64,000 nucleotides of DNA from a candidate division WWE3 bacterium. Its GTDB lineage: Bacteria > Patescibacteriota > WWE3 > UBA101185 > UBA10185. Of the stretch, positions 39,973 through 62,741 are shown piece by piece. A model generated the notes under the pieces. That model worked only from the letters and a program-made list of their open reading frames with translations, made no database searches and had not been told where the DNA came from. Location of the stretch: the NCBI GenBank assembly GCA_052035175.1, contig JBPOHV010000001.1, positions 366,773 through 430,772 of the forward strand, in the 5' to 3' direction. Each line of letters starts with the position of its first letter. The stretch's first letter is position 1. The position numbers and the translations under genes were made by a program.

Positions 39973-39998
39973 CCTAAGGAGTAAAACTAAGGAAATCA

Positions 39999-40059
39999 AG
40001 GTGGGCGAGATGCTCGTGAAGAAGATCGCATGATCAGATATCACGGCATCCGCCCACTA
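39999..40059 (+). repeat. Structured hairpin repeat, copy 2 (GGTGGGCGAGATGC...GCATCCGCCCAC)
   Basis: Same architecture as 39086-39148. The GGTGC/GCACC to GATGC/GCATC and CATGG/CCATG to CGTG/CACG changes keep the pairing intact. Confidence 0.7.
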
Positions 40060-40153
40060 AACCAAGAAGAAAGTTTCTATCAGCCTTTGGATCTCTGAAA
40101 GCAAAGATTGGTAGAAGCCTTCTGCTAAGAAGGTAAACCACAAGGAGGCAGTA

Positions 40154-40603: not shown

Positions 40604-40606
40604 ATT

Positions 40607-40671
40607 GAGCGGTAGATCGCTGTAGATAGTCCAAATCAGGACGCAATCTCTACGCGATCTACCGCTTTTTC
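40607..40671 (+). terminator. Rho-independent terminator with large structured loop
   Basis: GAGCGGTAGATCGC...GCGATCTACCGC followed by TTTTTC. Perfect 13-bp stem. Confidence 0.65.
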
Positions 40672-40786
40672 AGTTTTATACTAATGACTCATCAAATGAT
40701 ACTAGTTCTGCTTAACTCAGTTTCACTCATGCCCTCATACCTCATAGTGCTAGTATGCCGCTATTAATCTGATTAAAGGAGATGCC

Positions 40787-40990
40787 ATGTTAGTACTAAC
40801 TAAGAATACCGAACTTACCTTGTTTGGTATAAAAATTACGTTTGTAAATAACAGTTTGGATTTTTCAGCTGCATCCGAACTGGATGTTTTGTATGTCCCA
40901 GATTCCAATCCAAGAATTGTAAATGTTTGTTATCGGAATCGATCAATTTTTGTTGTGCAGCTACACGACATGCTTATTATTTCATGGTAG
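40787..40990 (+). CDS. small hypothetical protein (island gene 5, 67 aa)
   Basis: RBS AAAGGAG 5 nt upstream of the ATG. No TM helix. Confidence 0.3.
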   Translation: MLVLTKNTELTLFGIKITFVNNSLDFSAASELDVLYVPDSNPRIVNVCYRNRSIFVVQLHDMLIISW

Positions 40991-41048
40991 TTACCTTCAA
41001 TACCCAACAGTTTGGCATAAAGACCAAACTACAAATAAGGAGAATCTG

Positions 41049-41303
41049 ATGAAACGCTTTATGAAAAACCCGTTGATAACCTGGCTCGTACTTCTTGTTT
41101 TACTAACACCATTTTGGTGGTTAGCAAATGGAGGGGGCCGTGAGATAGATCTACCGCTAGCTCTGTCGGGGGTTAATGCATACATATTAATGTATGCATT
41201 GATTACTCGTGAAAAGGGTGACGCGCTCTTTTTGTCATTAGTCTATGCCGTTGCAGGACTTGTGATGCTAGGGTTTTCTTGTTATCTGATTATTATAGGG
41301 TAG
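41049..41303 (+). CDS. small 2-3 TM membrane protein (island gene 6)
   Basis: RBS AAGGAG 6 nt upstream of ATG 41049. Begins MKRFMKNPLITWLVLLVLLTPFWW. Confidence 0.4.
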   Translation: MKRFMKNPLITWLVLLVLLTPFWWLANGGGREIDLPLALSGVNAYILMYALITREKGDALFLSLVYAVAGLVMLGFSCYLIIIG

Positions 41304-41310
41304 AAAGAAA

Positions 41311-41373
41311 AAGGCGGTAGGTTTGCTGAGTACATTAATCAATGATTGATGCGCTCGCGATCTACCGCTTTTT
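41311..41373. terminator. Bidirectional rho-independent terminator sharing its 3' arm with the 40607-40671 terminator
   Basis: GAAAAAGGCGGTAG...GCGATCTACCGC followed by TTTTTC. Sits between convergent genes. The 18-nt 3' arm is identical to the 40654-40671 arm. Confidence 0.6.
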
Positions 41374-41379
41374 CTTTTC

Positions 41380-42783
41380 TTATTTATAGTAATCGTTTAA
41401 TTGACTATATGGCACTATCTTCATATCTGGGTTTTGTGTTAGCAAGTCTTTTTGTAACTGCAGATCTAACGTATCATCTCTGAATATCACAGCTTTTATA
41501 TCTTTACTAGAAACATGCATATTTCTTGGTTGTTTCGTATAACCTTTACTTGGATGCAACACGCCTTCTACGTATACACCATTGCCCTTCATTGCGCCTG
41601 CTTCAGGCGTTCCTGGTAAATATGTATAGCTCATGTGTTTTTCTATTTCAAATACTTCTCGGAATGCATGTACCATTCTTGCATCAACAAGTGAAAGCAT
41701 TTTGATTAAAGTTCCATCTGCAAATTCATGTCGTCCTATTGGTTCTCCTCGATCACCATATGTATATTCAACTCTTAAGGCTAGTGCTTCGTTGAAATGA
41801 ACAAAGATAGGTCTTTTTTTGCCCCATTCGTAGCGCTCGCCAGTTTTTTTTGAAATAAGTGCCCCGTACAATACAGAGTAAGGTTCGTTATTAACGGTTG
41901 CTTCTAATTGGGCTGGTGCGGTTGCATTCGAAAAAATAATAGTGTCGTATATTTCTAGTATCTGTTGTTCTAGTTCGTCTACTTGCATTGTGTCTATTAA
42001 TTCCGCTGCTTGAGAGTCCACTATCTCAATAGGTGAATCGCCAAGAGTGTGTTTTAATAATTCAATTGCTTCCCTCTGTTCGTTGGAATCAGCAATATTG
42101 TTGTATATTGTTTCTACCGCTTTTTCTATTTCGAGTTTTATTTTGTTTTGTATTTTTTCGCGTGTTAAAAACTTGCCAACTTTTTCAATAACTGCTATAG
42201 CCGCATTTTCACTTGTTTGCTTATTAATAGCAGTAGTTATGTTTTTTTCTGTAAATAGTGGTTCTTCTTGTATATTCTCAACTAGATGTATAAACTGAAT
42301 AACGGTTTGATTAGGCGCAGAAAAGTTTTCTAAGAAAAGTTCGTTTTTAGCCTCATCACAATCAACATCAGCGATGTTTACGCCTTTAACCTGTATTTGT
42401 ACACCACTCTCAGACTTAACCAGGCTATATTCATCTGGTAATCTTTTTTTTAATATTTCGATATCAGTATTTAATTTGGCAAATAGTATGGAGTGATCGC
42501 TTGCATTTGTTTTAAAAGAAATAGACATGAGTTCATTATCAGGAGTTTCCATTCTTATACTAGGTCCTGCTCCTAGTGTATCGATATATACTTTACACGC
42601 TTTAACCAAAGTGTCTGCGTGTGCAGTTTCATCTTCTATTACTTGTGTAAAATTCGCATACCTAGCAATTTTTTTGGTGTATGTTTCTAATAGTTCCAAC
42701 TTTAAATTTTCTTGGCTTGTTTGAACCTCATCAGCAGTGTTTTCAATATGAACTTCTTTTTCACTGGTTATATCATCAAGCAT
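41380..42783 (-). CDS. hypothetical protein (467 aa, acidic N-terminal half)
   Basis: Long ORF with no recognisable catalytic motif. Co-directional with the upstream 94-aa gene and separated from it by 8 bp. Confidence 0.5.
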   Translation of the reverse strand: MLDDITSEKEVHIENTADEVQTSQENLKLELLETYTKKIARYANFTQVIEDETAHADTLVKACKVYIDTLGAGPSIRMETPDNELMSISFKTNASDHSILFAKLNTDIEILKKRLPDEYSLVKSESGVQIQVKGVNIADVDCDEAKNELFLENFSAPNQTVIQFIHLVENIQEEPLFTEKNITTAINKQTSENAAIAVIEKVGKFLTREKIQNKIKLEIEKAVETIYNNIADSNEQREAIELLKHTLGDSPIEIVDSQAAELIDTMQVDELEQQILEIYDTIIFSNATAPAQLEATVNNEPYSVLYGALISKKTGERYEWGKKRPIFVHFNEALALRVEYTYGDRGEPIGRHEFADGTLIKMLSLVDARMVHAFREVFEIEKHMSYTYLPGTPEAGAMKGNGVYVEGVLHPSKGYTKQPRNMHVSSKDIKAVIFRDDTLDLQLQKDLLTQNPDMKIVPYSQLNDYYK

Positions 42784-42790
42784 GTAAGGT

Positions 42791-43075
42791 TTATGCTTCT
42801 CCTTGTACTAGTTTTCTCCAGTCAGTTTTTGATGGAGCAGCCGTTGGGGTTGCTTGTTTTTCATCTTTAGTGGGCTCTTCTGTTAAACCTTCAAGTTTTA
42901 TGTCAGCTGCTTCTGCTGTTTCGGCTTGGACTTCTGGTGTTCCTTGACGCATCATAGCTGCTATTCTGTTCATCGTTTTTGAGGTAATTATCGTTTCTGG
43001 TTGTTTTTCATTTGGTGTTTCATTTGTACCTGTAACTTCCGAAAGTCTTTCTAATGGCATATATTTTCCTTTCAA
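42791..43075 (-). CDS. small acidic hypothetical protein (94 aa)
   Basis: First gene of the putative two-gene operon. Low-complexity Glu/Thr/Ala/Pro-rich sequence. Confidence 0.4.
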   Translation of the reverse strand: MKGKYMPLERLSEVTGTNETPNEKQPETIITSKTMNRIAAMMRQGTPEVQAETAEAADIKLEGLTEEPTKDEKQATPTAAPSKTDWRKLVQGEA

Positions 43076-43155: not shown

Positions 43156-43266
43156 CGTATACTGTTTTGGTCACATTTATTGCGGCAGCATTCTTTTCGT
43201 CACTAAGTCCTCGCTTTGCTGCGGAATGGTTCCTCAATAATGTTGCCGCTAATAAATTTAACTAAT

Positions 43267-46200
43267 ATGAACAAACCAAACAATTCAGCCTTAACACATA
43301 TAATCGTCAAAGGTGCTCGCCAGCACAATTTGAAAAATATCGACCTAGAAATTCCAAAAAATAAAATGGTCATATTCACAGGAGTTTCTGGTAGTGGTAA
43401 GTCATCTATGGCAATGGATACTATTTATGCAGAAGGTCAAAGACGTTATGTAGAAAGTTTGAGTTCATACGCACGCCAATTCTTGGGAGTTATGGATAAG
43501 CCCGACGTCGATAGTATCGAAGGTTTATCCCCAGCAATTGCGATCGATCAAAAAACTACTTCAAAAAACCCTCGCTCTACAGTAGGCACTATTACAGAAG
43601 TTTATGATTTCATGCGTTTACTTTATGCAAGAGTGGGGCATCCGCATTGTCCAAATTGCGGACGCGAAGTCCAACGACAGTCGTCTGAAGAAATTGTAAA
43701 TCAAATATTTTCATTAGCTGAAAGTGATACAAATTTTAAATCTGAGCGTGGTTCGCGTTTTATTATTTATTCACCTATAGTTAGAGATCGAAAAGGTGAG
43801 TTTTCTTCGCTTTTTGATAATTTAAAAAAGCAAGGCGTAGTGCGTGCGCGCATTGATGGCAAAGTTTATGAACTCTCTGAGCAACTTACTTTAATTAAAA
43901 CAAATAAACATACTATAGACGCATTTTTATCAAGACATATTATAAGCAAAAAAAGACTGGCAGACGATGAAAAGAATATACGTTCTACTATCTTTCAAAG
44001 TATCGAAACTGCTTTACGCATGAGTAACGGCCTGGCGTTGGTTTCGTTTATCAAAGATAAAGACTTTGATTTTTCTGAAAATCCCAAAGAAGTCGAAGAT
44101 CACTTATTTTCAGAAAACTTTGCTTGTCCATTTTGCAATATATCTTTGCCAGATATAGAACCACGAAGTTTTTCTTTTAATTCTCCTCATGGTGCATGCG
44201 CCGAGTGCGATGGTTTGGGCACAAAGTTGGTTATAGATGAATCCACAGTTTTAAATAAATCTTTAACAATTAAAGAAGGCGCAATATTACCTTGGAATAA
44301 ATTGTTTGAGCACAATTCGTGGACGCAACTTGTTATTGACGCAGTCGCAAAAGAGCACAATATACCTTTGAATATCGAAGTTTCCAAAATGACAAAAGAA
44401 CATATGGATATTGTTTTGTATGGTACTGGTGATGTGAAGCATAAGATCAATTACACAAACAAAGAAGGTGACATGCACAATTTTAATGCTAGATATGAAG
44501 GAGTTATTCCAAATTTATTACGCAGACACAAAGAAACTCAATCTGACTATGTACGAAACGAAATTGAAAAGTATATGGTTTTGTATCCGTGCAGTGTGTG
44601 TAACGGTGACAGACTAAATAAGCATGCGCTTTCTGTAGTTATAGATTCACAAAATATTGCGCAGATCTCGAATTTATCAATAGAACACGCCGTCACTTGG
44701 TTTAATGAAATTACCACAAAGTTTAATTTACGCGAGCAAACTATAGCCGAGCCCATAATGAAAGAAATTAATTACCGTATGAAGTTTTTGCTAGACGTTG
44801 GTCTGGGATATTTAACTTTGAGTAGAGCTTCTAGCCATTTATCTGGTGGAGAAGCTCAACGCATACGGTTAGCTTCGCAAATTGGTTCTGGTTTATCTGG
44901 TGTTTTATATGTTTTAGACGAGCCATCTATTGGACTACATCAAAGAGATCAGGGCAAGCTGATCAAAACTTTGCACCATTTAAGAGATTTGGGAAATACT
45001 GTTTTGGTAGTAGAACACGATGAAGAAACAATGTTACAAAGTGATTATATTTTTGATTTTGGTCCAGGCGCGGGTGAACATGGTGGAAAAGTTATTGCCG
45101 AGGGTACGCCAGCACAACTGATGAAAGATGCAAATTCACTGACTGGAAAGTATTTATCAAGGCGCTTGGTCGTGGGTCAAACTGATGTAATATCAAAGAA
45201 AAAAAGTAAAAAGAAATTTGAATTTGATGATGGTTTTATAGACGCAGAAATTTCTGTAAAAGATGTAAAAGGAAGATCACTATCTATCATTGGGGCTTCA
45301 GGTCGTAACTTAAAAAATATTGATGTAGAGATTCCATTAGGAAAGCTCGTTTGTGTAACAGGTGTATCTGGAAGCGGTAAGTCTACATTGATTATGGATA
45401 CATTACATAGAGCTTTGCGCCAAAGATTTGCTTTAAAAAATGAAGAGCGACCAGAGCCATTTAGAGATATGACAGGGTTGGAACATATCGATAAAGTAAT
45501 CGCAATTGATCAAACGCCAATTGGTCGTACACCAAAATCTAATCCAGCAACTTATACAAAAGTATTTGATTTGATACGCGAGTTATTTGCACAAACTCAA
45601 GACTCTAAAATCCGTGGTTACAAAGCAGGACGATTTAGTTTTAATGTAAAAGGTGGTAGGTGTGAAGCTTGCAGTGGTGAAGGCCAAGTCAAAATTGAAA
45701 TGCAATTTATGCCAGATGTTTATATTAATTGCGAAGTATGTGAAGGCAAAAGATATAACAAAGAAGCTTTGGAAATACATTTTAGAGGCAAAAATATCGC
45801 AGATGTTTTGGATATGACTATTGAAGAGGCATTAGAGTTTTTTGCAAATCATGAAAATATTAGAAGAAAAATACAAGTGTTATACGATGTAGGTTTGAGT
45901 TATATAAGACTTGGTCAACCAGCTCCAACGTTATCTGGAGGAGAAGCTCAAAGAGTTAAGTTAGCTTTAGAGTTGGCAAAAAGATCTTTTGGTTCGACTT
46001 TGTACATTTTGGATGAACCTACTACCGGTCTACATTTTGCTGATCTCGAAAATTTGATAACTATTATGAAAATATTGACTCGTCGCGGTAATACTGTGTT
46101 AGTTATAGAACATAATTTGGATATAATCGCCAATAGCGATTGGATTATCGATCTCGGTCCCGAAGGCGGAGATAAAGGTGGTGAACTAGTTTTTTCAGGT

Positions 46201-46284
46201 GACTTAAAAGCATTGCTAAGTTGTAAATACTCACATACAGCAACAGCCCTACGAGAAATACAACAAAAACCTTTGACGCAATAA
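43267..46284 (+). CDS. uvrA: Excinuclease ABC subunit A
   Basis: Two ABC ATPase modules (GVSGSGKSS and GVSGSGKSTL), zinc-finger Cys clusters (CPNCGRE, CPFCN, CEACSGEG, CEVCEGKRYN), C-terminal SHTATALREI. Start set at ATG 43267. Confidence 0.95.
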   Translation: MNKPNNSALTHIIVKGARQHNLKNIDLEIPKNKMVIFTGVSGSGKSSMAMDTIYAEGQRRYVESLSSYARQFLGVMDKPDVDSIEGLSPAIAIDQKTTSKNPRSTVGTITEVYDFMRLLYARVGHPHCPNCGREVQRQSSEEIVNQIFSLAESDTNFKSERGSRFIIYSPIVRDRKGEFSSLFDNLKKQGVVRARIDGKVYELSEQLTLIKTNKHTIDAFLSRHIISKKRLADDEKNIRSTIFQSIETALRMSNGLALVSFIKDKDFDFSENPKEVEDHLFSENFACPFCNISLPDIEPRSFSFNSPHGACAECDGLGTKLVIDESTVLNKSLTIKEGAILPWNKLFEHNSWTQLVIDAVAKEHNIPLNIEVSKMTKEHMDIVLYGTGDVKHKINYTNKEGDMHNFNARYEGVIPNLLRRHKETQSDYVRNEIEKYMVLYPCSVCNGDRLNKHALSVVIDSQNIAQISNLSIEHAVTWFNEITTKFNLREQTIAEPIMKEINYRMKFLLDVGLGYLTLSRASSHLSGGEAQRIRLASQIGSGLSGVLYVLDEPSIGLHQRDQGKLIKTLHHLRDLGNTVLVVEHDEETMLQSDYIFDFGPGAGEHGGKVIAEGTPAQLMKDANSLTGKYLSRRLVVGQTDVISKKKSKKKFEFDDGFIDAEISVKDVKGRSLSIIGASGRNLKNIDVEIPLGKLVCVTGVSGSGKSTLIMDTLHRALRQRFALKNEERPEPFRDMTGLEHIDKVIAIDQTPIGRTPKSNPATYTKVFDLIRELFAQTQDSKIRGYKAGRFSFNVKGGRCEACSGEGQVKIEMQFMPDVYINCEVCEGKRYNKEALEIHFRGKNIADVLDMTIEEALEFFANHENIRRKIQVLYDVGLSYIRLGQPAPTLSGGEAQRVKLALELAKRSFGSTLYILDEPTTGLHFADLENLITIMKILTRRGNTVLVIEHNLDIIANSDWIIDLGPEGGDKGGELVFSGDLKALLSCKYSHTATALREIQQKPLTQ

Positions 46285-48100
46285 ATAGCGTATTTGATTC
46301 ATTGTCGATGATTTTTGGTATTTTTTGTTGAGTGATTATAAAAGGAATTTCTAGTGGTGTATCATTTGCATCTTTAAATTCGATTTTTGTGGTATCTCGA
46401 TCGAAATACACTTTAATCTTTCTATTTGGTTTCAAAATCGAGACTGTGCTGTTTGCAGTTTGTATATTGTATAAAAATGTACCGCCTTCATTTGTGAGTA
46501 TGTATGCTTTACGACCTTTAAATATCTGATACAAATTCAAGTTTGGTGTGTTGTATATTTTCAGTTTATTATCAAACTTATCTTCTATATTATTTTGTGC
46601 AAATTCGACTTCTACTAGCTTTTTGGCGATAGGTGCATCTTTTTCTGGTGAGTTTATATTAGTATTTCTGTACCCACCAGCAGGAATAGGCCATTGAGAA
46701 TCAATACCTTTTGTTACAAAAGCAAAATGATTTGTATCTAGTTTTGTAAAATAGTCTATCCCAGCGGTTTTTCCCCACGTAGGATCAACAGAAACCCACC
46801 CGTAAGTTGGATCGTAAAACTCGGGCCACGCGTGTAACAAATCGATTCCAGAAAGGTTAATTGATAAAGGTTTATTTTCTATGTCTGTTGTAAATGCATA
46901 TCCGTTTAATTCTCGAGAAGGTATACCCATAGCTCTAGTTATTGCTATAAAGGCGTCGGTAAATTCCATGCATACATTTGGTGAATCTTGTGTAAGCGCA
47001 GTTTTTGCTCCATGGCGTTCTACAGTTTCTCTCGAATTTATTTCAAAGTCATAATCTAGCGTATGTACAACATAGTCATAAGCTTTTTTTGCATTTTGTG
47101 CAACCGACACATTTTCGTCTTTAAGTTGCGCAGCTATTTCTTGAATTTGTTGTGAATCACTTTCCCAAAAGGGTTGGGCGTTTGTATATTTTTTTACTAA
47201 TTCATCAGGTAAATCCGCAAAATTTTTGCTAGCATTCAAATCTATTTGCTTGCTAAATAGCCTAGCAGATCCAAGTGCTTTTACTTCTATAGCTTGGCTC
47301 GGCTTTAGAATATAACGAGCGATATAATTGTTATCTTCGTCAAAATATACAAAGTAAGGTTCTGGAGTAATAGACGCATAGCTTACTTGCTGTACATTTT
47401 TTTTGTCAAAAGGTAGAGCAATCTCAAATGTTTGAGGTATTTTAGCCTGATTTTGTAATTCGTATGTAAGGTTGAAATTTAAATCTTGATGTAAACCAAA
47501 TGCGGCCGTGATGCCTGTATTTTGCACTTTTTCTTTTGAAAATGTATATATGTATACATTACCGTCATCTTTAGTCGTATCAGGAATTGGTGAAATAAAA
47601 ATGTTTGGGCCTATTTCTTTTGGTACAGCGATTGTTATATTGTACCTGCTGGCAGCGGTAGTTATCTCGGCTTTTGGTATATTTATATTCCAAATATTCC
47701 CAACTTTTTTTGCAATGTCTTTAGTTTTATACGTTACCGTAAATCTATTTTGTTTACCTTCGCCAATTATTTGTTTGTTGAGTTGCGCGCTTATGCTTGT
47801 GTTGTCGTCTGTTTTTTCTACATTTGTTTTCATTTGACCTTCCAAGTCGTGGCCGTAGACATCATACACGCTCAATTTTTTTATCAGTAGTGAGTAACTC
47901 GTTGCGACAACATCTTTTTGTAAATTTGTGAGTGTGACGGTTTGATCTACTTGTGTTTCACCGATCGATGTTATGTTATAAGTGAGATCGTATTCTACAA
48001 TAAACTGATTATCTGCTTTTACAACCAAAGCTATAAGGCTTATCATCAAAGCTGTGGGGAGTAAGGCGAATTGCAATAATTTTATAAGTCTTCCAAACAC
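46145..48100 (-). CDS. Large exported transglutaminase-like (Cys-His-Asp) superfamily protein with N- and C-terminal TM anchors
   Basis: CMEFTDAFIAITRAMGIPSRELNGYAF and LLHAWPEFYDPTYGWVSVDPTWG match the transglutaminase core. The 3' end overlaps the uvrA 3' end convergently by 140 bp. Confidence 0.7.
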   Translation of the reverse strand: MFGRLIKLLQFALLPTALMISLIALVVKADNQFIVEYDLTYNITSIGETQVDQTVTLTNLQKDVVATSYSLLIKKLSVYDVYGHDLEGQMKTNVEKTDDNTSISAQLNKQIIGEGKQNRFTVTYKTKDIAKKVGNIWNINIPKAEITTAASRYNITIAVPKEIGPNIFISPIPDTTKDDGNVYIYTFSKEKVQNTGITAAFGLHQDLNFNLTYELQNQAKIPQTFEIALPFDKKNVQQVSYASITPEPYFVYFDEDNNYIARYILKPSQAIEVKALGSARLFSKQIDLNASKNFADLPDELVKKYTNAQPFWESDSQQIQEIAAQLKDENVSVAQNAKKAYDYVVHTLDYDFEINSRETVERHGAKTALTQDSPNVCMEFTDAFIAITRAMGIPSRELNGYAFTTDIENKPLSINLSGIDLLHAWPEFYDPTYGWVSVDPTWGKTAGIDYFTKLDTNHFAFVTKGIDSQWPIPAGGYRNTNINSPEKDAPIAKKLVEVEFAQNNIEDKFDNKLKIYNTPNLNLYQIFKGRKAYILTNEGGTFLYNIQTANSTVSILKPNRKIKVYFDRDTTKIEFKDANDTPLEIPFIITQQKIPKIIDNESNTLFIASKVFVVFLVGLLLYVSIYNLAMLLSHLKKLVHHLYLRLRDRDR

Positions 48101-50163: not shown

Positions 50164-51420
50164 ATGTCTGACGTAGTTGTATTTGAAGATAAACAACCAC
50201 TGCTTGGTGAGGTTGAAATTGAGGCTTCGGGAATCTCGGCTATAAATATTATCGCTGCTTCACTTTTCTTGGATAGAGAAATTATCTTATCGAACATACC
50301 AAATGTGTCCATTGTTCAGCATGCTTTAGATGTGATTATAGCTTTGGGTGCAAAAGTTGCCTGGATAGACGACAAAAGCTTGTTGATAAACGGTTCAAAT
50401 ATAAATGCAAATTGTCCTTCTGGTGACCCACGTGTAGTTATTTTGCTGTTGCCTGTACTTTTATCAAAATTTGGTAAAGTTGTTTTGCAAAGCGAGGCTT
50501 TGGTTGACTATATTGGTAAGTATGAAGGCATTAAGAATACTCTTGATAAATTTAATGTTTTAATAACTAAAGATGACAATTCGTATGAAGTCAGCTATAC
50601 GCCACTGACCGAGTCACTTTTTGTAATAAAAGAAGAAGATTACTTGGGCACAGTTTTGGCAGCATTATTTTCTTGTCTTAATAAACAAACAGACATCGAA
50701 CTAAATTTTTCTGTAAATGATCCTGAAATTGAGGACTTGATACAATTCTTGACTTCTTGCGGTTACAAGATAGATATGCAATCTACAGCTAACCTGCATA
50801 TAAATGGTTTTGATGATACTTTACTGCAAAAATATAAGTTGGCTAGTGATATCAATTTAATTGTGTTTTTTTCTTTAGCAGCATTAATGTCTGAAGGAAA
50901 CATTTTGATACGAAATGTAGCGCGCAGTTATCTAACATCTTTTTTGAGTTTCTTGACCAAAACTGGTTCATTATTTGATTTGTCAGGAAATAATTTGAAA
51001 GTTTGGGCGGGCACGAAAGTTTTGACTGGCGCAGACATTTATATAGGTAATTATCCTAACTTAATTAAAGACTGGTTACCAATGCTGTTAGTTTATTTAT
51101 CGACTATTGCTGAACCAAGCACTATCCGTATTGATGCAAAAGAAAATTTACACGTTATAGGTAATTTGGACCATTTGGGGATAAATGTTGACGTAGAAGA
51201 ATCAAATGGTGTTAATACTCTTACCTTGTCTGGGCATAGTGCCTTTAAGTCTGGTAAATTTTATGCAGAAGGCGTGCCTGATTGTTTGGCGTTGTTATTG
51301 TATGGTTTGGCTTCTACAGCTAAATTTGAATTTGGAAATCCCAAACTTTTAGAAACTTATTACAAAAATTTATACGAAAAACTTATAATGTTAGGAAGTA
51401 ATCTGATTTATAAATCATGA
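50164..51420 (+). CDS. murA: MurA-like (EPSP-synthase fold) protein; canonical catalytic residues not evident
   Basis: N-terminus LLGEVEIEASGISAINIIAASLFLDREIILSNIPNVSIVQHALDVIIALGAKV aligns with the MurA N-terminus. No counterpart of E. coli K22 (GAKN) or the C115 loop (GGCxIGxRP) could be found by eye. Confidence 0.65.
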   Translation: MSDVVVFEDKQPLLGEVEIEASGISAINIIAASLFLDREIILSNIPNVSIVQHALDVIIALGAKVAWIDDKSLLINGSNINANCPSGDPRVVILLLPVLLSKFGKVVLQSEALVDYIGKYEGIKNTLDKFNVLITKDDNSYEVSYTPLTESLFVIKEEDYLGTVLAALFSCLNKQTDIELNFSVNDPEIEDLIQFLTSCGYKIDMQSTANLHINGFDDTLLQKYKLASDINLIVFFSLAALMSEGNILIRNVARSYLTSFLSFLTKTGSLFDLSGNNLKVWAGTKVLTGADIYIGNYPNLIKDWLPMLLVYLSTIAEPSTIRIDAKENLHVIGNLDHLGINVDVEESNGVNTLTLSGHSAFKSGKFYAEGVPDCLALLLYGLASTAKFEFGNPKLLETYYKNLYEKLIMLGSNLIYKS

Positions 51421-52589
51421 TGCATAATTCTGCCCATTACACTCGCAAATTCTTATTAACACTTAGCAGTTTAGTTATTTTTGGTTTGATCTTTATTTAC
51501 AATTCGACGATTGTATCTTCACAGCAAATATATGGAGTCCCTTATAGATTTGTAATCTTACAATTGTTGTGGACGATTCTAGGTTTGGGTGCTTTTATGA
51601 TTTTTTATAAGTTTGACTATTCAAAATTATCGTCGTTTTCTACTTTTCTTTATATGTTGAGTATAGTGTTTTTGTGTATAACGGCTTTTGTGAGTATGAT
51701 TGGTAATTTACGCAATTCCTGTGATGCTTTTATTCCTTTTGTCCCATGTATAAATGGGGCTTATCGATGGTTTTATATAAATCCTTCGCCTTTGCCAAAA
51801 ATACCATTTGTAGGTGTTTTGGGTTTTCAACCAGTAGAGTTGGCGAAATTAGCTTTGGTTTTGTGTCTTACATTTAGATTAAAAAAAGCTATACATTCAA
51901 AACAACAAGACAAAGATCCATTTTTTGTGTATCTAATATTGACAGGTTTAACAAGCGCTTTGGTTTATCTACAACCAAATATGTCGTCGGCAATACTATT
52001 ATTTGGTATAGGAACAGCTATTTATATTGTGTCACAAGCCCCGCTACAAAAATTGTTTATATTAATACCAGTTTTGACGTTAGTTTTTATACTTTTAGTA
52101 TTTGGCTCTTCTTATCGTAGGCAGCGCTTACTCACTTATACTAACAATGATGCATCAGTTGATAGTGGTTATCATATTAAGCAAATTAAAATAGCTTTGG
52201 GATCAGGTGGATTATTTGGGGTTGGCTTTGGACAATCTCGTCAGAAGTATCAATATGTTCCAGAGATAGCTTCAGATTCTATATTTGCAATCATTGGTGA
52301 GGAACTTGGTCTTATTGGTACGTGTAGTGTTTTATTTGGGTTTCTGTTGCTTTTGTATTTTGGTGTCCTCATAGCAAAGAGTTCTATCGACTATGAAGGT
52401 AAGTTGATAAGCGTTGGAATCTTGTCGTGGATTACATTGCAGTTGTTTATAAATGTTTCTGCGATGCTCGAAATAATTCCATTAACTGGTGTTCCTATAC
52501 CATTTATTTCATATGGCGGTAGTTCTACAGTTTTTATTATGGCGGGTGCTGGGTTGCTTGCTTCTGTCGGGAAGAAAAGCCAGGTATAA
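51417..52589 (+). CDS. ftsW: SEDS-family peptidoglycan polymerase FtsW
   Basis: 10-TM SEDS pattern ending PLTGVPIPFISYGGSST. Position between murA and murG. Confidence 0.85.
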   Translation: MMHNSAHYTRKFLLTLSSLVIFGLIFIYNSTIVSSQQIYGVPYRFVILQLLWTILGLGAFMIFYKFDYSKLSSFSTFLYMLSIVFLCITAFVSMIGNLRNSCDAFIPFVPCINGAYRWFYINPSPLPKIPFVGVLGFQPVELAKLALVLCLTFRLKKAIHSKQQDKDPFFVYLILTGLTSALVYLQPNMSSAILLFGIGTAIYIVSQAPLQKLFILIPVLTLVFILLVFGSSYRRQRLLTYTNNDASVDSGYHIKQIKIALGSGGLFGVGFGQSRQKYQYVPEIASDSIFAIIGEELGLIGTCSVLFGFLLLLYFGVLIAKSSIDYEGKLISVGILSWITLQLFINVSAMLEIIPLTGVPIPFISYGGSSTVFIMAGAGLLASVGKKSQV

Positions 52590-52598: not shown

Positions 52599-53708
52599 AT
52601 GAAAATAGTAATAACTGGGGGTCATCATAGTTCTGCGTTACCTGTAATTGAAGAGCTTAAAAATACATTAAAAGTATGTGAATTTTTTTGGATTGGTCAC
52701 AAATATTCTTTGTTACACGATAAAAATCCAACATTAGAGTATATCGAAATTTCTCAACTAAATATTCCTTTTTATGATTTGGCAGTGGGTAAAGTTTATG
52801 GAAAAGCTAAGTTAGTAGCGTTATATAAACAGTTGGTATCTTGCATTAAGGCTTTTATTTTATTAAAAAAAATAGCTCCCGATGTAATCTTGTCATTCGG
52901 TGGATACATCGCTGTACCAGTTGCGTGTGCAGGATGGTTATTGCGTATACCTATAGTTACACACGAACAAACCATGGTAAGTGGCTATGCAAACAGATTA
53001 ATTGCTTTTTTTGCTAGTAAGATTTTATTATCGTTTGAATCTTCTCTACAGTTTTATAAAAAGTCGCCCAAAGTTATAGTTACAGGTTTACCTTTGCGAA
53101 AGGCAATTTTTGAACCTGGTACAAATAATTTAGAACTTAACACAAATTTACCTACAATTTATGTGACAGGTGGTAAGTCTGGTTCACACAAGCTAAACGT
53201 TGCGGTTGGTTTGATACTTCCTGAATTATTGAAAATAGCTAATGTTATACATCAAGTGGGGGATTACTCAGAGACGCGTGACTTTGAAGAAATGACAAGT
53301 ATATATAACACTTTAGTCACGAAAAATTTGCCAAATAACTTGCCTGGTAAATATATAATACGAAAATTTGTTTTGGAAAATGAAATTGGAGAAGTTTTTT
53401 CAAAAAGTAGTTTGGTCGTAAGTAGAGCAGGAGCTCATATTGTAAGTGAATTGCTTACGCTTGGTAAATCGTCGATTCTTGTGCCAATCCCATGGGTTTC
53501 ACACAATGAACAAAATTTAAATGCTCAATTGTTGGTGTCTCATGGTTTAGGAATTATTTACCCAGAAACGCAATTGTCAAACTCTGATCTACTTTTACAA
53601 ACAATCTTGAAGCAACTGCAAACTGTTTCTAATAATCAGAAAGTTATTAATTATGATAGTCCAGCAAAAAAGATTGCCCAAGAGACAATCAAAATATCCA
53701 AGCAATAA
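52599..53708 (+). CDS. murG: Undecaprenyl-PP-MurNAc-pentapeptide GlcNAc transferase MurG
   Basis: MKIVITGGHHSSALPVIEEL..., GT28 N- and C-domains, SRAGAHIVSELLTLGKSSILVP. Confidence 0.85.
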   Translation: MKIVITGGHHSSALPVIEELKNTLKVCEFFWIGHKYSLLHDKNPTLEYIEISQLNIPFYDLAVGKVYGKAKLVALYKQLVSCIKAFILLKKIAPDVILSFGGYIAVPVACAGWLLRIPIVTHEQTMVSGYANRLIAFFASKILLSFESSLQFYKKSPKVIVTGLPLRKAIFEPGTNNLELNTNLPTIYVTGGKSGSHKLNVAVGLILPELLKIANVIHQVGDYSETRDFEEMTSIYNTLVTKNLPNNLPGKYIIRKFVLENEIGEVFSKSSLVVSRAGAHIVSELLTLGKSSILVPIPWVSHNEQNLNAQLLVSHGLGIIYPETQLSNSDLLLQTILKQLQTVSNNQKVINYDSPAKKIAQETIKISKQ

Positions 53709-54498
53709 AGAAAGTTTTTTGTCAAAAGGTAAAAACTTTTTTTCAAAATCTTTTTTCAAAGATCGCAGACTTAAAAAGCTGGTAATCAAAACCTTAAAAA
53801 TATTAATTGCATTTAGTGCTGTAAGTAGTGTCGCTTATTTATTTATTATGACAAAGACATTTACTATCAGCGATGTAAAGTTTGTCGGTACCGGTGAATT
53901 TGTAAATTCGACAGACGTCAAAGCTGTAGCTGCAAATAATGCTTTCGGTAAAAATATATTTTTGTATTCATCTCAGAGCTTAGCGACGACTTTAAAGTCA
54001 TCATTCCTTGGTGCAAAAGATTTTGCGGTTACCAAAGTTTTACCCAATACTTTGGTGATTCATATAACTCAAAGAGTTCCGATAGCTGTTTTGGATACTC
54101 CTGATCTGACAAAGCATTTTCTTGTAGATGATGAGGGTTATGTTTTGGGTGAGATTACCGATAAAGACTATAGCGATCTTCCTAGACTGACGTATTTTGA
54201 AGATTTAAATGTAGGTGTTTTTATAAACAAAAGTGTTGTGCCAAAATATATGCAGCTTTTAGCAGAGCTAAAAGCTGCAGAAGTAAAAATAAGTAGCATA
54301 AGCATGTATAATGACTACACCGAGTTCTATACAGAAAACGGAGTTCAAGTGTTGTTGCCAAGCGAAAAGGTAAATAAAAAGTATATATTTTCGATAAAAG
54401 CTGTGATATCCAAAGCTTTAGAGCTAGGAAAAGTTTTACAGAAGATTGATTTACGATACGAAAAAGTAATAGTATTATTTAATACAGAAAAGCTATAA
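53653..54498 (+). CDS. ftsQ: Cell division protein FtsQ/DivIB-like
   Basis: Basic N-terminus, single TM (LKILIAFSAVSSVAYLFI), then FTISDVKFVGTGEF (POTRA-like). Sits between murG and ftsA. Start uncertain; overlaps murG by 56 nt. Confidence 0.6.
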   Translation: MIVQQKRLPKRQSKYPSNKESFLSKGKNFFSKSFFKDRRLKKLVIKTLKILIAFSAVSSVAYLFIMTKTFTISDVKFVGTGEFVNSTDVKAVAANNAFGKNIFLYSSQSLATTLKSSFLGAKDFAVTKVLPNTLVIHITQRVPIAVLDTPDLTKHFLVDDEGYVLGEITDKDYSDLPRLTYFEDLNVGVFINKSVVPKYMQLLAELKAAEVKISSISMYNDYTEFYTENGVQVLLPSEKVNKKYIFSIKAVISKALELGKVLQKIDLRYEKVIVLFNTEKL

Positions 54499-54507
54499 TC
54501 ATACATT

Positions 54508-55764
54508 ATGCCCAAAGAAAAAATAATTACAGGAATTGATATAGGGTCAACCAAAATCAGCACAACAATTGCTACTGTAGATGAAAAAAAGGTATCTGTA
54601 ATAGGTGTTTCTGGTGATGTACCGTCCAAAGGTATAAACCGAGGTATCGTTGTAGATATTGATAGTGCTGTTGAATCTATATCAGCAAGCTTAGAGCGCG
54701 CCGAACGTATGGCCGGTGTATCTGTTTCAAGCGCTTTTGTTACTTTAAACGGAAGTCATATAGAAACTCAGAATTCTCACGGTGTTGTAGCTGTAACTCC
54801 TGGCAAAAGTTCAGAGATCACAAGTGTTGATGTACAACGAGTTACTGAAGCCGCACAGGCTATATCTTTGGCATCAAATAGAGAGCTAGTTCATGTTATC
54901 CCGCGCGATTTTGAAGTAGATTCTCAAGCTGGTATTAAAGATCCTGTTGGTATGGCTGGAAATCGTTTGGAAGTAGAAACAAACATCATTCATGGATCTT
55001 CTACAACAATGCGCAATATTATTAAATGTGTGAATCAACTAAACGTAGAAGTTGCAGATTTAGTATATGTAGGCATTGCAAACGCCGAAGCAGTTCTCAC
55101 AGACACAGAAAAAGAATTGGGAACGCTTTTGGTTGATATCGGCGGTGGTACTACATCAATAATTGCTTATCTAGATGGAAGTCCTATTTATTCTGCCGTG
55201 TTTCCTTTGGGCGGTAAACTAATTACGAGTGATCTTGCTATTGGTTTGCGCGCACGTTTGCCCGAAGCAGAGAAAATCAAATTAAAACTCAGCATGGAAT
55301 ATATTCATTCAGCCAAAACAAATGAGACAAACCGACACGATGAAGAATTTGATATATCTGAGTTTGGTTTAGAAACTGTAAGTGTTCCAAAAAAGCTTTT
55401 ATATAAAATTATTGATGCACGAGTCGAAGAAATTTTTAGATTGATTGCATTAGATATTAATAAAGCCAAATTAGAGCGCAGATTACCAGCCGGTTTAGTA
55501 ATTACAGGTGGTGGTGCTTTAACTGCTGGTGTTGATAAAGTTGCAAAAGATATTTTAAAAACGCCAGTGCGCATAGGATATCCAAGAGGAGTTACTGGAC
55601 TAATTGATGAAATACAAGGGCCATCATCGTCTGCATGTGTAGGTGCATTACTTTATGGTACACATACACATCAGAGTAGCCTATTGTCATTTGAAGATAA
55701 GAAAGGTAAGATGTCTGTAAATTTTAAGAACTTTTTTGAACGCGTAAAGTCTTTTCTGCCCTAG
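54508..55764 (+). CDS. ftsA: Cell division protein FtsA
   Basis: IITGIDIGSTKIS... actin-fold motifs (DIGGGTT, VITGGGA). Confidence 0.9.
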   Translation: MPKEKIITGIDIGSTKISTTIATVDEKKVSVIGVSGDVPSKGINRGIVVDIDSAVESISASLERAERMAGVSVSSAFVTLNGSHIETQNSHGVVAVTPGKSSEITSVDVQRVTEAAQAISLASNRELVHVIPRDFEVDSQAGIKDPVGMAGNRLEVETNIIHGSSTTMRNIIKCVNQLNVEVADLVYVGIANAEAVLTDTEKELGTLLVDIGGGTTSIIAYLDGSPIYSAVFPLGGKLITSDLAIGLRARLPEAEKIKLKLSMEYIHSAKTNETNRHDEEFDISEFGLETVSVPKKLLYKIIDARVEEIFRLIALDINKAKLERRLPAGLVITGGGALTAGVDKVAKDILKTPVRIGYPRGVTGLIDEIQGPSSSACVGALLYGTHTHQSSLLSFEDKKGKMSVNFKNFFERVKSFLP

Positions 55765-55782
55765 ACAAATCCGCAATAAAAG

Positions 55783-56907
55783 ATGCAAGTAAAACCTGAA
55801 ATCGAAAGATTTGCAAAAATAAGAGTCGTTGGAGTTGGTGGAGCTGGTGGTAATGCAATTAATACCATGATTGATGCTCAACAAATCCAAGGTGTCGAAT
55901 TTATTGCAATTAATACAGACGCACAAGATCTCTCAATAAATAAAGCTTATATAAAAGTTCCTATTGGACATGAGATAACTGGTGGACTTGGTGCAGGAGC
56001 GAATCCAGAAGTTGGGCGTAGAGCTGCCGAAGAGTCAAAAGAATTAATTAAAGCCAACTTAGAAGGTGCAGACATGATTTTTATTGCTGCGGGTATGGGT
56101 GGTGGCACCGGTACTGGTGCAGCACCATTGGTAGCAAGCATTGCAAAAGAACTCGGTGCATTAACTGTTGGCGTTGTAACAAAACCATTTAACTTTGAAG
56201 GCGCACAAAGATTGGCAAACGCTGAGCGTGGCATCGAATCACTTCGCAAAGAGGTTGATGCGCTTATTGTTATTCCAAATCAAAAATTATTAGAAGTTGC
56301 TGATAAAAGCTTGCCAGTCGTAGACGCTTTTAAATTGTCAGATAGTATCTTAACTCAGGGTGTACAAGGTATATCAGATCTTATAGTTATGCCAGGTCTT
56401 ATGAATGTAGATTTTGCCGATGTTCGTACTATTATGAAAGACGCAGGTTCTGCGCTCATGGGTATAGGAATAGGTACAGGTGAAAATCGTGCTGAAATCG
56501 CAGCAAAAGCCGCTATATCATCTCCATTGCTAGAACAATCTATCGAAGGAGCAACAGGAATATTGTTTAATGTTGTTGGTGGTGCTGACATGACTTTGCA
56601 AGAGTTTGATCAAGCATCTAGCATTATTTCACAATCTGCCAGCCCGGATGCAAATATAATTGCTGGTACATCGATCGATCCAAACTTAAAAGATCAAATA
56701 AAAGTTACTGTGATTGCAACTGGTTTTGATACCGATGATATTCGTTCTCAACTTGGTATGAAAGTAAGTACTCAAGAAAGACGATCGTTTGATACTTTGC
56801 CTCAAAACGATGCTGCGCAAGACAGTAATCCTTATATTCCAACAGACGAAAATAACGATGATAAATACGAAGGTAAATACGATATTCCAACTTTTCTTCG
56901 TGAATAG
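55783..56907 (+). CDS. ftsZ: Cell division protein FtsZ
   Basis: [17 protein letters not shown], tubulin signature GGGTGTG, T7 loop NVDFAD, C-terminal peptide DIPTFLR. Confidence 0.95.
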
Positions 56908-59598: not shown

Positions 59599-59643
59599 GT
59601 TCTAAGTGTAGATGATACATTTGTTGCGTGGTAACATTTCACA

Positions 59644-59805
59644 ATGTCGCGCTTAACAAAATATCTTTTACTTTTTGTTTTGGTAGTATCAGTAGGTGTT
59701 AGTTTGGTTACATATTTGGTTTATAGAGCTGTGCAAACAGATAACTTTTTCGTGGCGCAAACTGCGCAGGTGTCTGTTTTGTCTGCTGAAAGTATTTCAG
59801 AGTGA
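59644..59805 (+). CDS. small membrane protein candidate (53 aa, below the ORF-track cutoff)
   Basis: ATG 59644 to TGA 59803-59805, read directly from the sequence. One TM (YLLLFVLVVSVGVSLVTYLVY). Fills the nrdJ-ileS gap. Confidence 0.25.
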   Translation: MSRLTKYLLLFVLVVSVGVSLVTYLVYRAVQTDNFFVAQTAQVSVLSAESISE

Positions 59806-59846
59806 GATGTGTTTCAAATTTGTAACTTTTTTGATACTATTCCCAC

Positions 59847-62741
59847 ATGTCTGATACACATACTGAGAAAACTATTCCTCAATTAGAAGAGGAAATGCTG
59901 GCTTATTGGAAAGAGAATACTATTTTCGAGAAGTCTGTTTCTCAGCGCCCTTCTGATAACTCATATGTTTTTTATGATGGACCTCCATTTATTTCCGGTT
60001 TACCACATTATGGTCATTTCTTAGCTTCAATCGCAAAAGATATAGTTCCCAGGTATTGGACTATGCGAGGTAAGCGCGTAGAAAGAGTATGGGGGTGGGA
60101 TGCCCATGGTTTAACCGTTGAAAATAAAGTTCAAAAAGAACTGGGTATCAAAGATCGTCGTGAAATAGAAAACTTTGGGTTGAGTAAATTTACTGAAGCT
60201 TGTTACAAATATACATCTGCAACATCAGCAGAATGGCCATGGTATATAGAACGTATTGGTCGCTGGGTCGACATGGAGCACGCATATAAGACTATAGACA
60301 CCTCATATATGGAGTCTGTTATGTGGGCATTTAAGCAGCTTTATGATAAGAAATTAATTTATGAAGGTATGCGTACATCTTTATATTGCACTACATGCGG
60401 CACGCCTGTTTCGAATTTTGAAGTTGCCATGGATGATACTTATAAAGAAGTTGAGGATCCCGCAGTTACAATCAAATTCAAAATAAGTACACAAGGTAGG
60501 TTTGAAAATATGTTTGTACTAGCATGGACTACTACGCCATGGACGTTGCCTTCAAATAGAGCTTTGGTTTTAGACAAATCTGCTGATTATGCTTTGGTTG
60601 AATATGACATGGCGACTTATATTCTAGCTGTTTCTCGAGTAGCAGAAATCTTCAAAGATAAACAATATAATGTAATTGATAAAGTAAAAGGTGCCGATTT
60701 AGTTGGTCTTGCTTATGAACCTTTGTATAAGATTTATGCAAACAATGACAATGATTTCAAAATTTACCATTTTGACAATATGGTAAGCGCCGATGAAGGT
60801 ACTGGAGTTGTACATAGTGCTCCAGGATTTGGTGCTATAGATACACAAATGGGATTTGAAAGCGGACTCACTTTGATGACATCTATAGACGACGAAGGTA
60901 AGTTTACGCAAGGTAATAATGAAGCTAATCCATATTTTGGACTTTATTACAGTAAAGCAAATCCATTAATAACATATGATCTAGAGAAAAGGGGATTGTT
61001 ATTTGAAAATTCCAAAATACTTCACAGATTTCCATATCACGATAGATGCAATACGCTTTTGATTCAAAGAGCGCAGCACTCTTGGTTTTTACGAGAAACA
61101 GAAATGACTAAAGCTTTGTTAGACAATGCAGAACCCATAAAGTGGGTTCCAGATCATTTGAAAAATGGATTATTTAAATATGTTATCGAATCGGCACCAG
61201 ATTGGTGTATTTCACGCAACCGTTACTGGGCGACTCCAATGCCCGTATGGGAAAGCGCAGATGGAGATCGGTTAGTATTGGGAAGTATAAAAGAAATCGA
61301 AGAGTTGTCTGGTCAAAAAGTAAAAGATCTGCACAGACCTTATATAGATGAAATAGTTATACATAAAGATGGCAAAGAATATAAACGCAGAGTAGAAGTA
61401 CTAGACTCTTGGTTTGAAGCAGGTTCAATGCCGTTTGCACAATGGCATTATCCTTTTGAAAATAAAGAAAAGTTTGAACAAAACTTTCCAGGCGATTACA
61501 TCGTAGAGTATATAGCTCAAACTCGTGCGTGGTTTAGAGTGTTACATGTTATTTCTGTAGGTGTTTTTGATACTCACGCTTTTAAGAATGTAGTTTGTAC
61601 AGGTGTTTTAGCTGGTAATGACGGTCGTAAAATGAGTAAAACCTATGGTAATTACACAGATCCAAAAGAAGTTTTACAAACCGTAGGCGGAGACGCAGTG
61701 AGACTATACTTTATGAATTCTCCTCTACTTACAGGAGGCGGCACCAATTTTGATTTTGACGCGATGAAAGTAAAATCTAGAAATGTTATAAATCCTTTGT
61801 TAAATTCTTTGAAATTTTTTATGATGTATACGCCAAAAGACAATTGGCAACCAGACCTTGAAAAATTATCAGAAAATGTTTTAGACAAATGGATAATGAT
61901 ACGGCTAAACGAAACAATAAAAGGCTTTTCCGATAATATGGAAAATTATTTGATTGCTGATGCCGTTCAATACATAGAAGACTTTGTAGATGATTTATCT
62001 CGATGGTATGTACGCCGATCACGAGAACGTATAACTTCGGGTGATAATGATGCTCTAAATACTTTGTTTACAGTTTTATACAAGTTTTCACTTGCTTCTG
62101 CTCCTACAATACCGTTTTTATCAGAAAGAATATATCAATCTTTAAAATCGTACGTACCTTCTGCTAAAGAATCGGTGCATTTAGAAGATTATCCGCAGTA
62201 CGATGCAGATTTATTAACTGACGAATCTAATATTTTAGTAAAAATGAAAAATACCAGGGATGTGGTTTCAATAATTCTGGCTATGAGGTCATCTGCAAAT
62301 GTAAATCTAAAGGTACGTCAACCATTACAAAATGCATTTGTAGTATTTGACGAGACAGTAAAAGCAAATGAGTACGGTCTTTTTGTAGATATAGTTCAAG
62401 ACGAAGTAAATATTAAAGAAGTAAGTATACTAGATAAAGTGCCTGTCAGCGTTGATACAAATGTGTTTGCTTCTATGCAACTAGATGCAAATAGCGTTGT
62501 CTATTTAAACAAAGAAATCACCGAAGACTTGCGTCTAGAAGGTATGGCACGTGATTTTATAAGGGCTATCCAAGATTTGCGTAAAACAAAAGGTTACAAT
62601 ATAAGCGACAATATCGATGTTACATATCCTGATACTGAAGAGTACAAAAAACTTATGGACATGTTTGGTCCATTTATCAAGTCTAAGGTGACTGCACGTA
62701 ATTTTGTGCCAAGTACTTCTCTCGATGTACTAAAGATTTAA
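59847..62741 (+). CDS. ileS: Isoleucyl-tRNA synthetase
   Basis: HIGH-type motif PHYGH; WGWDAHGLTVE (matches IleRS GWDCHGLPIE rather than ValRS); WTTTPWTLPSN; KMSKS-type GRKMSKTYGN. Confidence 0.9.
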   Translation: MSDTHTEKTIPQLEEEMLAYWKENTIFEKSVSQRPSDNSYVFYDGPPFISGLPHYGHFLASIAKDIVPRYWTMRGKRVERVWGWDAHGLTVENKVQKELGIKDRREIENFGLSKFTEACYKYTSATSAEWPWYIERIGRWVDMEHAYKTIDTSYMESVMWAFKQLYDKKLIYEGMRTSLYCTTCGTPVSNFEVAMDDTYKEVEDPAVTIKFKISTQGRFENMFVLAWTTTPWTLPSNRALVLDKSADYALVEYDMATYILAVSRVAEIFKDKQYNVIDKVKGADLVGLAYEPLYKIYANNDNDFKIYHFDNMVSADEGTGVVHSAPGFGAIDTQMGFESGLTLMTSIDDEGKFTQGNNEANPYFGLYYSKANPLITYDLEKRGLLFENSKILHRFPYHDRCNTLLIQRAQHSWFLRETEMTKALLDNAEPIKWVPDHLKNGLFKYVIESAPDWCISRNRYWATPMPVWESADGDRLVLGSIKEIEELSGQKVKDLHRPYIDEIVIHKDGKEYKRRVEVLDSWFEAGSMPFAQWHYPFENKEKFEQNFPGDYIVEYIAQTRAWFRVLHVISVGVFDTHAFKNVVCTGVLAGNDGRKMSKTYGNYTDPKEVLQTVGGDAVRLYFMNSPLLTGGGTNFDFDAMKVKSRNVINPLLNSLKFFMMYTPKDNWQPDLEKLSENVLDKWIMIRLNETIKGFSDNMENYLIADAVQYIEDFVDDLSRWYVRRSRERITSGDNDALNTLFTVLYKFSLASAPTIPFLSERIYQSLKSYVPSAKESVHLEDYPQYDADLLTDESNILVKMKNTRDVVSIILAMRSSANVNLKVRQPLQNAFVVFDETVKANEYGLFVDIVQDEVNIKEVSILDKVPVSVDTNVFASMQLDANSVVYLNKEITEDLRLEGMARDFIRAIQDLRKTKGYNISDNIDVTYPDTEEYKKLMDMFGPFIKSKVTARNFVPSTSLDVLKI

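Follow-up and report, generated by a model that had tools for sequence, protein, structure and literature searches.

Peptidoglycan synthesis has its first committed step in the reaction of MurA; the enzyme is targeted by fosfomycin and is regarded as a marker common to all bacteria that build a wall. Ten residues are established in its enzymology (K22, N23, R91, C115, R120, D305, R331, D369, R371 and R397), with Cys115 replaced by Asp in some species. We analysed a MurA-like open reading frame (ORF) in the cell-wall and division cluster of a candidate division WWE3 bacterium. It lies in a 64-kb window, the whole stretch of DNA under analysis (64,000 nucleotides; GenBank assembly GCA_052035175.1, contig JBPOHV010000001.1, positions 366,773 to 430,772); the ORF, at 50164..51420 on the plus strand of the window, is called the query or the window protein, and L-numbers and P-numbers label the loci and proteins of its relatives. 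In Pseudomonas aeruginosa, MurA has an essential, catalysis-independent role, in which it activates LpxC by binding and in which a dead C117S mutant is still active (review PMC12444477). Tannerella forsythia makes peptidoglycan without MurA and MurB via salvage of N-acetylmuramic acid (MurNAc) (PMC7670621). Among four complete candidate-phylum genomes, only that of WWE3, RAAC2, was without a complete identifiable peptidoglycan pathway (Kantor et al. 2013, PMC3812714), and LpxC and lipopolysaccharide synthesis were reported absent from such genomes, including the complete WWE3 genome (PMC3812714). We found no description of non-catalytic MurA homologues or inactive MurA paralogues in the full-text literature, either for the candidate phyla radiation (CPR)/Patescibacteria or elsewhere.

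From its alignments and structural model, we consider it about 55% probable that the query is a folded, non-catalytic derivative, kept by selection, of the operonic MurA of WWE3/Katanobacteria. Compared with MurA (TIGR01072; E. coli structure 1UAE, C. difficile structure 6Q0A), the query shares the fold, collinearity, the equivalents of R91, D231 and D305 and a place in a cell-wall/division cluster, but lacks K22, N23, the Cys/Asp115-Arg120 loop, R232, R331, D369, R371 and R397. The P. aeruginosa precedent resembles what we propose in that an essential binding function resides on the MurA fold; this is an analogy only, and P. aeruginosa MurA, unlike the query as read here, is also a working enzyme. 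Salvage in Tannerella by the AmgK/MurU route shows that lipid-II genes can be essential without MurA catalysis, but Tannerella has no murA gene at all. A conserved, catalytically degenerate MurA lineage in a division operon appears to be new, while the protein family and its fold are well known.

The query is a full-length and genuine MurA-fold homologue, because it matched a MurA profile over its full length, had MurA structures as its best relatives and gave a confident structural model. It matched Pfam EPSP_synthase with 59 bits and aligned end to end with TIGR01072, the murA equivalog profile, residues 7-414 falling on profile positions 6-414 without large indels. The scores were 141.1 bits on this profile, below its cut-off of 392.7, and 132 bits on the broader subfamily profile NF006873, below its cut-off of 297. 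On the profile TIGR01356 for AroA, the 5-enolpyruvylshikimate-3-phosphate (EPSP) synthase, the match was only partial and reached 33 bits against a cut-off of 287.25. A phmmer search returned MurA enzymes as the best solved relatives (E ~1e-16). The AlphaFold2 model, built on 47 homologues, had a mean predicted local distance difference test score (pLDDT) of 90.3 and a predicted template modelling score (pTM) of 0.91, and showed the two-domain inside-out alpha/beta barrel of the EPSP-synthase/MurA fold. In a Foldseek comparison of the model with the PDB, the 45 best matches were MurA or NikO (E down to 1e-36; template modelling scores 0.82-0.87), and the ranking placed MurA structures at the top, followed by NikO and EPSP synthases. 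At the sequence level the protein stood apart: its identity to E. coli MurA was ~21%, apart from the query, a word-index homologue search returned just four proteins, all canonical MurA and 21-25% identical to it, and an exhaustive phmmer search of 1.84 billion cluster representatives yielded no relative more than 32% identical.

Catalytic residues were mapped with five MAFFT alignments of different sequence sets and a phmmer alignment to C. difficile MurA, all of which were concordant outside the mobile loop. The E. coli MurA reference sequence behaved as a normal MurA in every alignment. The query retained three of the ten residues, namely R91, D305 and possibly an Asp at position 115, and had lost the other seven (Table 1). 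R91 corresponded to R90 and R232 to I230 in all five MAFFT alignments; the D231 equivalent was also kept, and R331 fell on a gap or on N328. The glycine-rich loop PGG[C/D]xIGxRP was replaced by SEALVDYIGKYEG, of which D115 stood under Cys115 in three of the five MAFFT alignments and V114 in the other two; the R120 column held a gap, G118 or K119, with no Arg equivalent, and the register of D115 and K119 was ambiguous. AlphaFold2 predicted loop segment 111-119 to be a helix. Full scores of 10/10 at the same columns were obtained for 21 relatives from genome loci and for 47 of the 80 nearest cluster representatives, which indicates that the residues have truly been lost and that the earlier reading by eye was no artefact. 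The possible Asp115 does not rescue the active site, because K22, R120 and R397 are absent.

These results bear out the observation that the preliminary description had made from the letters alone, and part of its interpretation. The MurA/EPSP-synthase fold that it recognised is supported jointly by Pfam EPSP_synthase, the full-length TIGR01072 alignment, AlphaFold2 and Foldseek. The reading ASGISAI around the position of K22 corresponds to residues 21-27, and the absence of K22 and of the Cys115/Arg120 loop was found again by profile and multiple alignments. The residue mapping it had proposed as a check confirmed that K22, R120 and R397 are lost, whereas D305 is kept and an Asp perhaps occupies position 115. 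Its reservation that the protein might simply be too divergent for alignment by eye can be set aside, as profile and multiple alignments placed the gaps where it had suspected them.

The query occupies the ancestral murA slot of WWE3/Katanobacteria genomes. The order uvrA, transglutaminase-like gene, uvrC, membrane ORF, secG, murA, mraY, ftsW, murG, ftsQAZ and ribonucleotide reductase (RNR) gene recurs in L002-L006, in L008 and in some 45 GTDB genomes. Relatives were gathered by profile search, by the exhaustive phmmer search and by a scan of GTDB species representatives with the pattern [GAP][PA]L[LV][FY]RFGKA. In the window, the query is preceded by uvrA, the transglutaminase-like gene on the opposite strand, uvrC and a small membrane ORF, and followed by ftsW, murG, ftsQ, ftsA, ftsZ, a class II RNR gene, ileS and rodA; the secG-murA adjacency is also found in relatives. 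The relatives carry two extra genes, mraY between the EPSP-synthase-family gene and ftsW, and cob(I)alamin adenosyltransferase between the RNR gene and ileS. Searches by tblastn with the relatives' proteins found every other neighbour in the window. Neither a tblastn match to the relatives' MraY nor a MraY motif was present anywhere in the 64 kb; the slot order is thus that of WWE3 without mraY, which has left this operon, as it has left the slot in L041, L043 and L049. Given the conserved gene order, the query is the positional orthologue of the operonic WWE3 murA and not an additional paralogue, so that the word paralog in the preliminary description is not accurate; its suggestion of a non-catalytic MurA homologue is supported by the loss of seven residues, a score far below the cut-off and a maintained fold and reading frame.

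Compared with both the canonical (P0150/L011) and the degenerate (P0135/L002, L030) operonic MurA proteins of WWE3, the query shares the slot, the flanking genes, the trend of residue loss and the local motifs LLINGSxIN and NxLKVW. However, it is only 24-30% identical to them, when about 50% would be expected from the neighbouring genes. It lacks their insertion of ~22 residues (after E. coli residue ~350) and their RFGKA and DLNRMGA motifs, reading SKFGKV in place of the lineage signature [FY]RFGKA, so that the pattern used in the GTDB scan did not pick it up. Moreover, it has lost K22, N23, R331, D369 and R371, which most of them keep, and mraY is not adjacent.

This divergence is specific to the gene. 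Between the window and L002, the neighbours are 42-70% identical (UvrC 46%, FtsW 54%, MurG 47%, FtsA 70%, FtsZ 70%, RNR 67%), and the MurA-like protein is 24-26% identical by tblastn and global alignments. L002 and L008 are about as far from each other as the window is from either (FtsZ 67%), and their MurA-like proteins are 50% identical. Expressed as a ratio to the mean identity of FtsW, MurG and FtsZ, the identity of the MurA-like protein was 0.44 for the window and 0.80-0.91 across 35 genomes, apart from a few low values (L035 and L036, 0.55/0.58; L012, 0.68); these proteins and that of the window are precisely those in which no more than three canonical residues remain. The query has thus diverged about twice as far as its neighbouring genes. 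In rough neighbour-joining trees of the flanking proteins, the window falls inside WWE3, alone on a branch whose length is unremarkable. We considered whether the acceleration came from the absence of mraY in the slot and rejected this, since L041 and L043, which are also without mraY, evolve at a normal relative rate (0.82).

When the gene was allowed to drift neutrally in simulation, stop codons appeared in all 300 replicates, seven on average, even when only 20% of the amino acids had diverged. The excess divergence of the query lies far above this level, which argues that its reading frame has been protected by selection. The ratio of nonsynonymous to synonymous substitution rates (dN/dS) cannot be obtained for the query itself, because no relative is closer than 32%. 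Of the features expected of a pseudoenzyme, residue loss is seen by alignment, and selection is seen on the frame, by simulation, and in degenerate relatives, by dN/dS, rather than in the query directly.

To place the query within its clade, we scored 56 full-length related proteins from representative genomes, of which 35 were degenerate in the slot. The slot gene is fully canonical in L011 (on the same contig as L008/P0150), L015, L031, L033, L037, L042 and L044, and MurA was canonical in all Microgenomates retrieved. Two complete genomes carry a degenerate slot gene, CP006914.1 (RAAC2_WWE3_1, L030; K22R, C115R, R397C) and MEWB01000001.1 (L050 type). In the exhaustive search, 26 of the 80 nearest representatives held four or fewer of the ten residues. 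Among the 35 degenerate proteins, C/D115 and R397 were each kept in only two, R120 in 13 and K22 in 15 (with Arg in a further 11); R91 was kept in 32, D305 in 26 (Glu in six more), and R331 and D369 in 23 each. To judge from these counts, C115 and R397 were the first to be lost. Losses are distributed in a mosaic, and the trees mix canonical with degenerate genomes, which suggests several independent losses and, in addition, one large clade made up of degenerate members only. By these comparisons, the query would have gone furthest in a loss of catalytic MurA residues that occurs in many WWE3 (Katanobacteria).

The degenerate relatives are clearly kept by selection, since their dN/dS values (0.02-0.15) are indistinguishable from those of MraY, FtsW, MurG and UvrC in the same pairs. 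For L002-L003, the values were 0.055 for the MurA-like protein, 0.054 for MraY and 0.098 for FtsW, and the strongly degenerate pairs L010-L014 and L035-L036 gave 0.071 and 0.116. On TIGR01072, the canonical WWE3 proteins P0150 and P0002 scored 413 and 435, degenerate relatives 212-377 and the query 141. Degenerate proteins of the L002, L010 and L030 types pass the NF006873 cut-off (318-358 bits against 297), so that automatic annotation will name them UDP-N-acetylglucosamine 1-carboxyvinyltransferase.

Other proteins have degenerated as strongly. L012, L035/L036, P0182, P0183 and P0197, from other WWE3 genomes and metagenomes, resemble the query in holding 0-2 of the ten residues, in keeping the fold-defining residues and in their low ratios (0.55-0.68), but they are at most 25-29% identical to it and are placed apart from it by neighbour trees, and their degeneration and that of the query are probably independent events. 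Replacement of K22 by a small residue and of N23 by Ile (x-I-S-A) was observed in L010, L014, L029, L032 and L034, as well as at 50230-50235 of the window. We considered a grouping of the query with this set and rejected it, as neighbour-joining trees keep them apart; the shared loss is probably convergent. In seven of the 35 degenerate WWE3 proteins (L030, L040, L066, L018, L022, L025 and L026), Cys is present at position 397, and the slot proteins of L030 and L040 carry Arg at 115. The roles of Cys and Arg at 115 and 397 may have been swapped in such proteins, which could preserve some chemistry.

If the query is a non-catalytic derivative of the operonic MurA, the ancestors of this genome would already have lost catalysis or had it altered; afterwards the query would have shed the substrate-binding residues still left, in an operon that also lost mraY. 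It would exert its effect through binding rather than catalysis, either partnering or regulating the proteins of the membrane steps in wall synthesis (FtsW, MurG and a MraY encoded elsewhere), and UDP-MurNAc would come from another enzyme or from salvage. The tight coupling of the slot gene to mraY in relatives, and to ftsW in the window, suggests that the partner is to be sought among these membrane steps.

Several observations weigh against this reading. With no relative more than 32% identical, purifying selection on the query is extrapolated from its relatives and from the open frame, and the confidence of the AlphaFold2 model is owed in part to an alignment of true MurA proteins. The partner role is derived from gene order only. 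R91 and D305 are still present, and position 115 may hold an Asp. Furthermore, the query keeps 5 of 16 conserved active-site columns and 29 of 55 other conserved columns, which are not significantly different proportions (Fisher p = 0.16), indicating that the whole protein has been eroded and not its active site only; decay specific to the active site was accordingly rejected for the query. The same contrast was significant in other degenerate proteins (p between 1e-4 and 0.02), and its absence here also fits a general relaxation of constraint.

Three other explanations are each less likely than a non-catalytic derivative. The erosion across conserved columns is what would be expected if the query were a decaying relic, with MurA activity made dispensable by a second enzyme or MurNAc salvage, selection relaxed, and the gene without function of its own and not yet broken. 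The highest relative divergence of all slot genes, the loss of the RFGKA and DLNRMGA motifs and of the insertion, the singleton status of the query and the deletion of neighbouring mraY point the same way. Genomes this small, however, seldom keep useless genes of 1.25 kb. The 418-codon frame is intact at 33% GC, although no neutral simulation remained open even at 80% identity; the MurA profile still aligns end to end without large indels and the fold prediction is confident; the start/stop coupling to secG and ftsW is kept; and equally degenerate relatives, such as L035-L036, are under purifying selection. We therefore regard a relic as unlikely.

It is similarly doubtful that the query is a neofunctionalised enzyme, transferring enolpyruvyl or some other group with a different nucleotide sugar or acceptor as substrate. 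Maintenance by selection, the retained fold, catalytic base D303 and R90, and new charged residues near the old site (K119 and K302) would suit such an enzyme, and the superfamily has diversified before, as illustrated by NikO among the fold matches and by a bryophyte MurA reported to make EPSP (PMC11588093). Yet the residues with which MurA and EPSP synthase bind the phosphate and carboxylate of phosphoenolpyruvate (PEP), namely K22, R120, R331, R371 and R397, are gone without obvious replacements, the mobile loop is predicted to be helical, and there are no conserved relatives to define a new active-site motif.

Least probable is a working MurA whose active site has been rewired beyond recognition in a fast-evolving genome: the operon position, the lack of another murA in the window, the intact downstream lipid-II genes and an Asp that can align with Cys115 (C115D structures 3v4t and 6q0a are among the matches, and MurA enzymes with Asp115 are active) would allow it, but the genome as a whole does not evolve fast (branch lengths are ordinary, and identity to relatives is 67-70% for FtsZ, FtsA and RNR), K22, N23 and every catalytic Arg except R91 (R120, R331, R371 and R397) are missing from positions that are invariant in every canonical sequence examined, C115, R120, R91 and D305 are the very residues mutated in MurA structures among the solved matches, and the TIGR01072 score is far below its cut-off.

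Wall synthesis itself seems to continue in this organism. MurG is intact in its motifs, and FtsW, FtsI and RodA are present in the window, which argues that lipid II is still made and that UDP-MurNAc is needed. A tblastn search with E. coli MurA detected only the query, and no second murA, in the 64 kb; scans of the same window for motifs of the Mur-ligase P-loop, MraY, MurB, Ddl, MurU-like NTP-transferases and AmgK-like APH-kinases were all negative. Among WWE3 genomes whose slot gene is degenerate, at least one (L029) has Mur ligases beside mraY.

A distinct family, here termed MurA2 (L009:8700-10025; L070-L096, metagenome loci), is usually followed by murB. K22, N23, R91, C115, R120, D305 and R397 are invariant in it, and R331G, R371Q, G398R and R232F (V or P in two loci) are changed. 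In L009, L071 and L074, from a related CPR lineage with FtsI 50% identical to that of the window, a degenerate MurA-like gene after ftsI coexists with MurA2 next to murB, demonstrating that a second type of enzyme can indeed take over. The query itself is 22% identical to the L009 MurA2 and carries none of its signature residues, and no murB was found in the window.

More tentatively, and with less confidence than for the query alone, we propose that WWE3 may hold a widespread and so far undescribed family of MurA-fold proteins without catalytic activity. They would have been retained in the lipid-II/division operon over hundreds of millions of years, serving MraY, MurG or FtsW as binding subunits or regulators, or acting as sensors of UDP-sugars, with MurNAc or UDP-MurNAc obtained through MurA2 or from hosts; the query would be the most derived member of the family and would have given up nucleotide-sugar binding. 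If the operonic murA of many WWE3 genomes is inactive, pathway reconstructions that count such genes as MurA are wrong, and muramic acid must reach these ultra-small and probably host-dependent bacteria by another route, which bears on their host dependence. A MurA fold would then have a conserved non-catalytic function in the cell-wall and division machinery that is open to experiment. The window protein offers the clearest test case, because almost nothing is left of its active site.

Table 1. Coordinates in the window of the query, its altered or retained active-site positions and the adjacent genes.
Feature	Position	Strand	Description
secG, 72 aa	49943..50161	+	stop 2 nt before the ATG of the MurA-like ORF; 49% identity by tblastn with L002 SecG
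MurA-like ORF (query)	50164..51420	+	418 aa, ATG start, 33% GC
Codons G23-I24	50230..50235	+	occupy the catalytic K22/N23 positions (E. coli numbering) in each of the five MAFFT alignments and in that by phmmer
Residues 109-122 (QSEALVDYIGKYEG)	50488..50529	+	replace the mobile Cys115 loop LPGG[C/D]xIGxRP; no Cys, no Arg120
D303	51070..51072	+	equivalent of catalytic base D305, retained
G370-V371-P372	51271..51279	+	replaces D369-L370-R371 (D369>G370, R371>P372)
T398	51355..51357	+	replaces R397, which binds the PEP phosphate
ATGA overlap, stop of MurA-like ORF/start of ftsW	51417..51420	+	junction where relatives carry mraY
ftsW	51417..52589	+	Pfam FTSW_RODA_SPOVE; 54% identity to L002 FtsW
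murG	52599..53708	+	family motifs all intact
ftsQ, ftsA, ftsZ	53653..56907	+	

The remaining features of the window concern the surroundings of this operon. The secG gene is below the ORF-listing threshold and overlaps the preceding 141-aa membrane ORF by ATGA. The window FtsW has thousands of homologues, the best of them 50-56% identical and labelled WWE3 or Patescibacteria; contigs encoding these best homologues have the gene order of the window plus the two extra genes. All close syntenic relatives carry mraY and cob(I)alamin adenosyltransferase at the junctions that correspond to 51417-51420 and ~59600-59850, and the window lacks both. A further division group, mraZ, rsmH and ftsI, lies 27 kb upstream of the query. 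No RNA family was found in the window with Rfam. Promoter and terminator scans gave no more sites than in shuffled sequence, so that the operon boundaries are set by gene spacing only.

Upstream, positions 38000-42800 have a GC content of 0.41-0.42, compared with 0.33-0.36 elsewhere, and contain several small membrane-like ORFs and a 467-aa ORF (41383-42783, minus strand) without a Pfam match; this segment may be foreign DNA. The adjacent ORFs at 35338-37982 are a 467-aa ORF without a Pfam match and a 412-aa ORF in which only a C-terminal Trans_reg_C (winged-helix) domain was matched. The uvrA gene (43216-46284, plus strand) and the transglutaminase-like gene (46145-48100, minus strand) are convergent and overlap at their 3' ends by ~140 nt (46145-46284), and their counterparts overlap in L008 as well.

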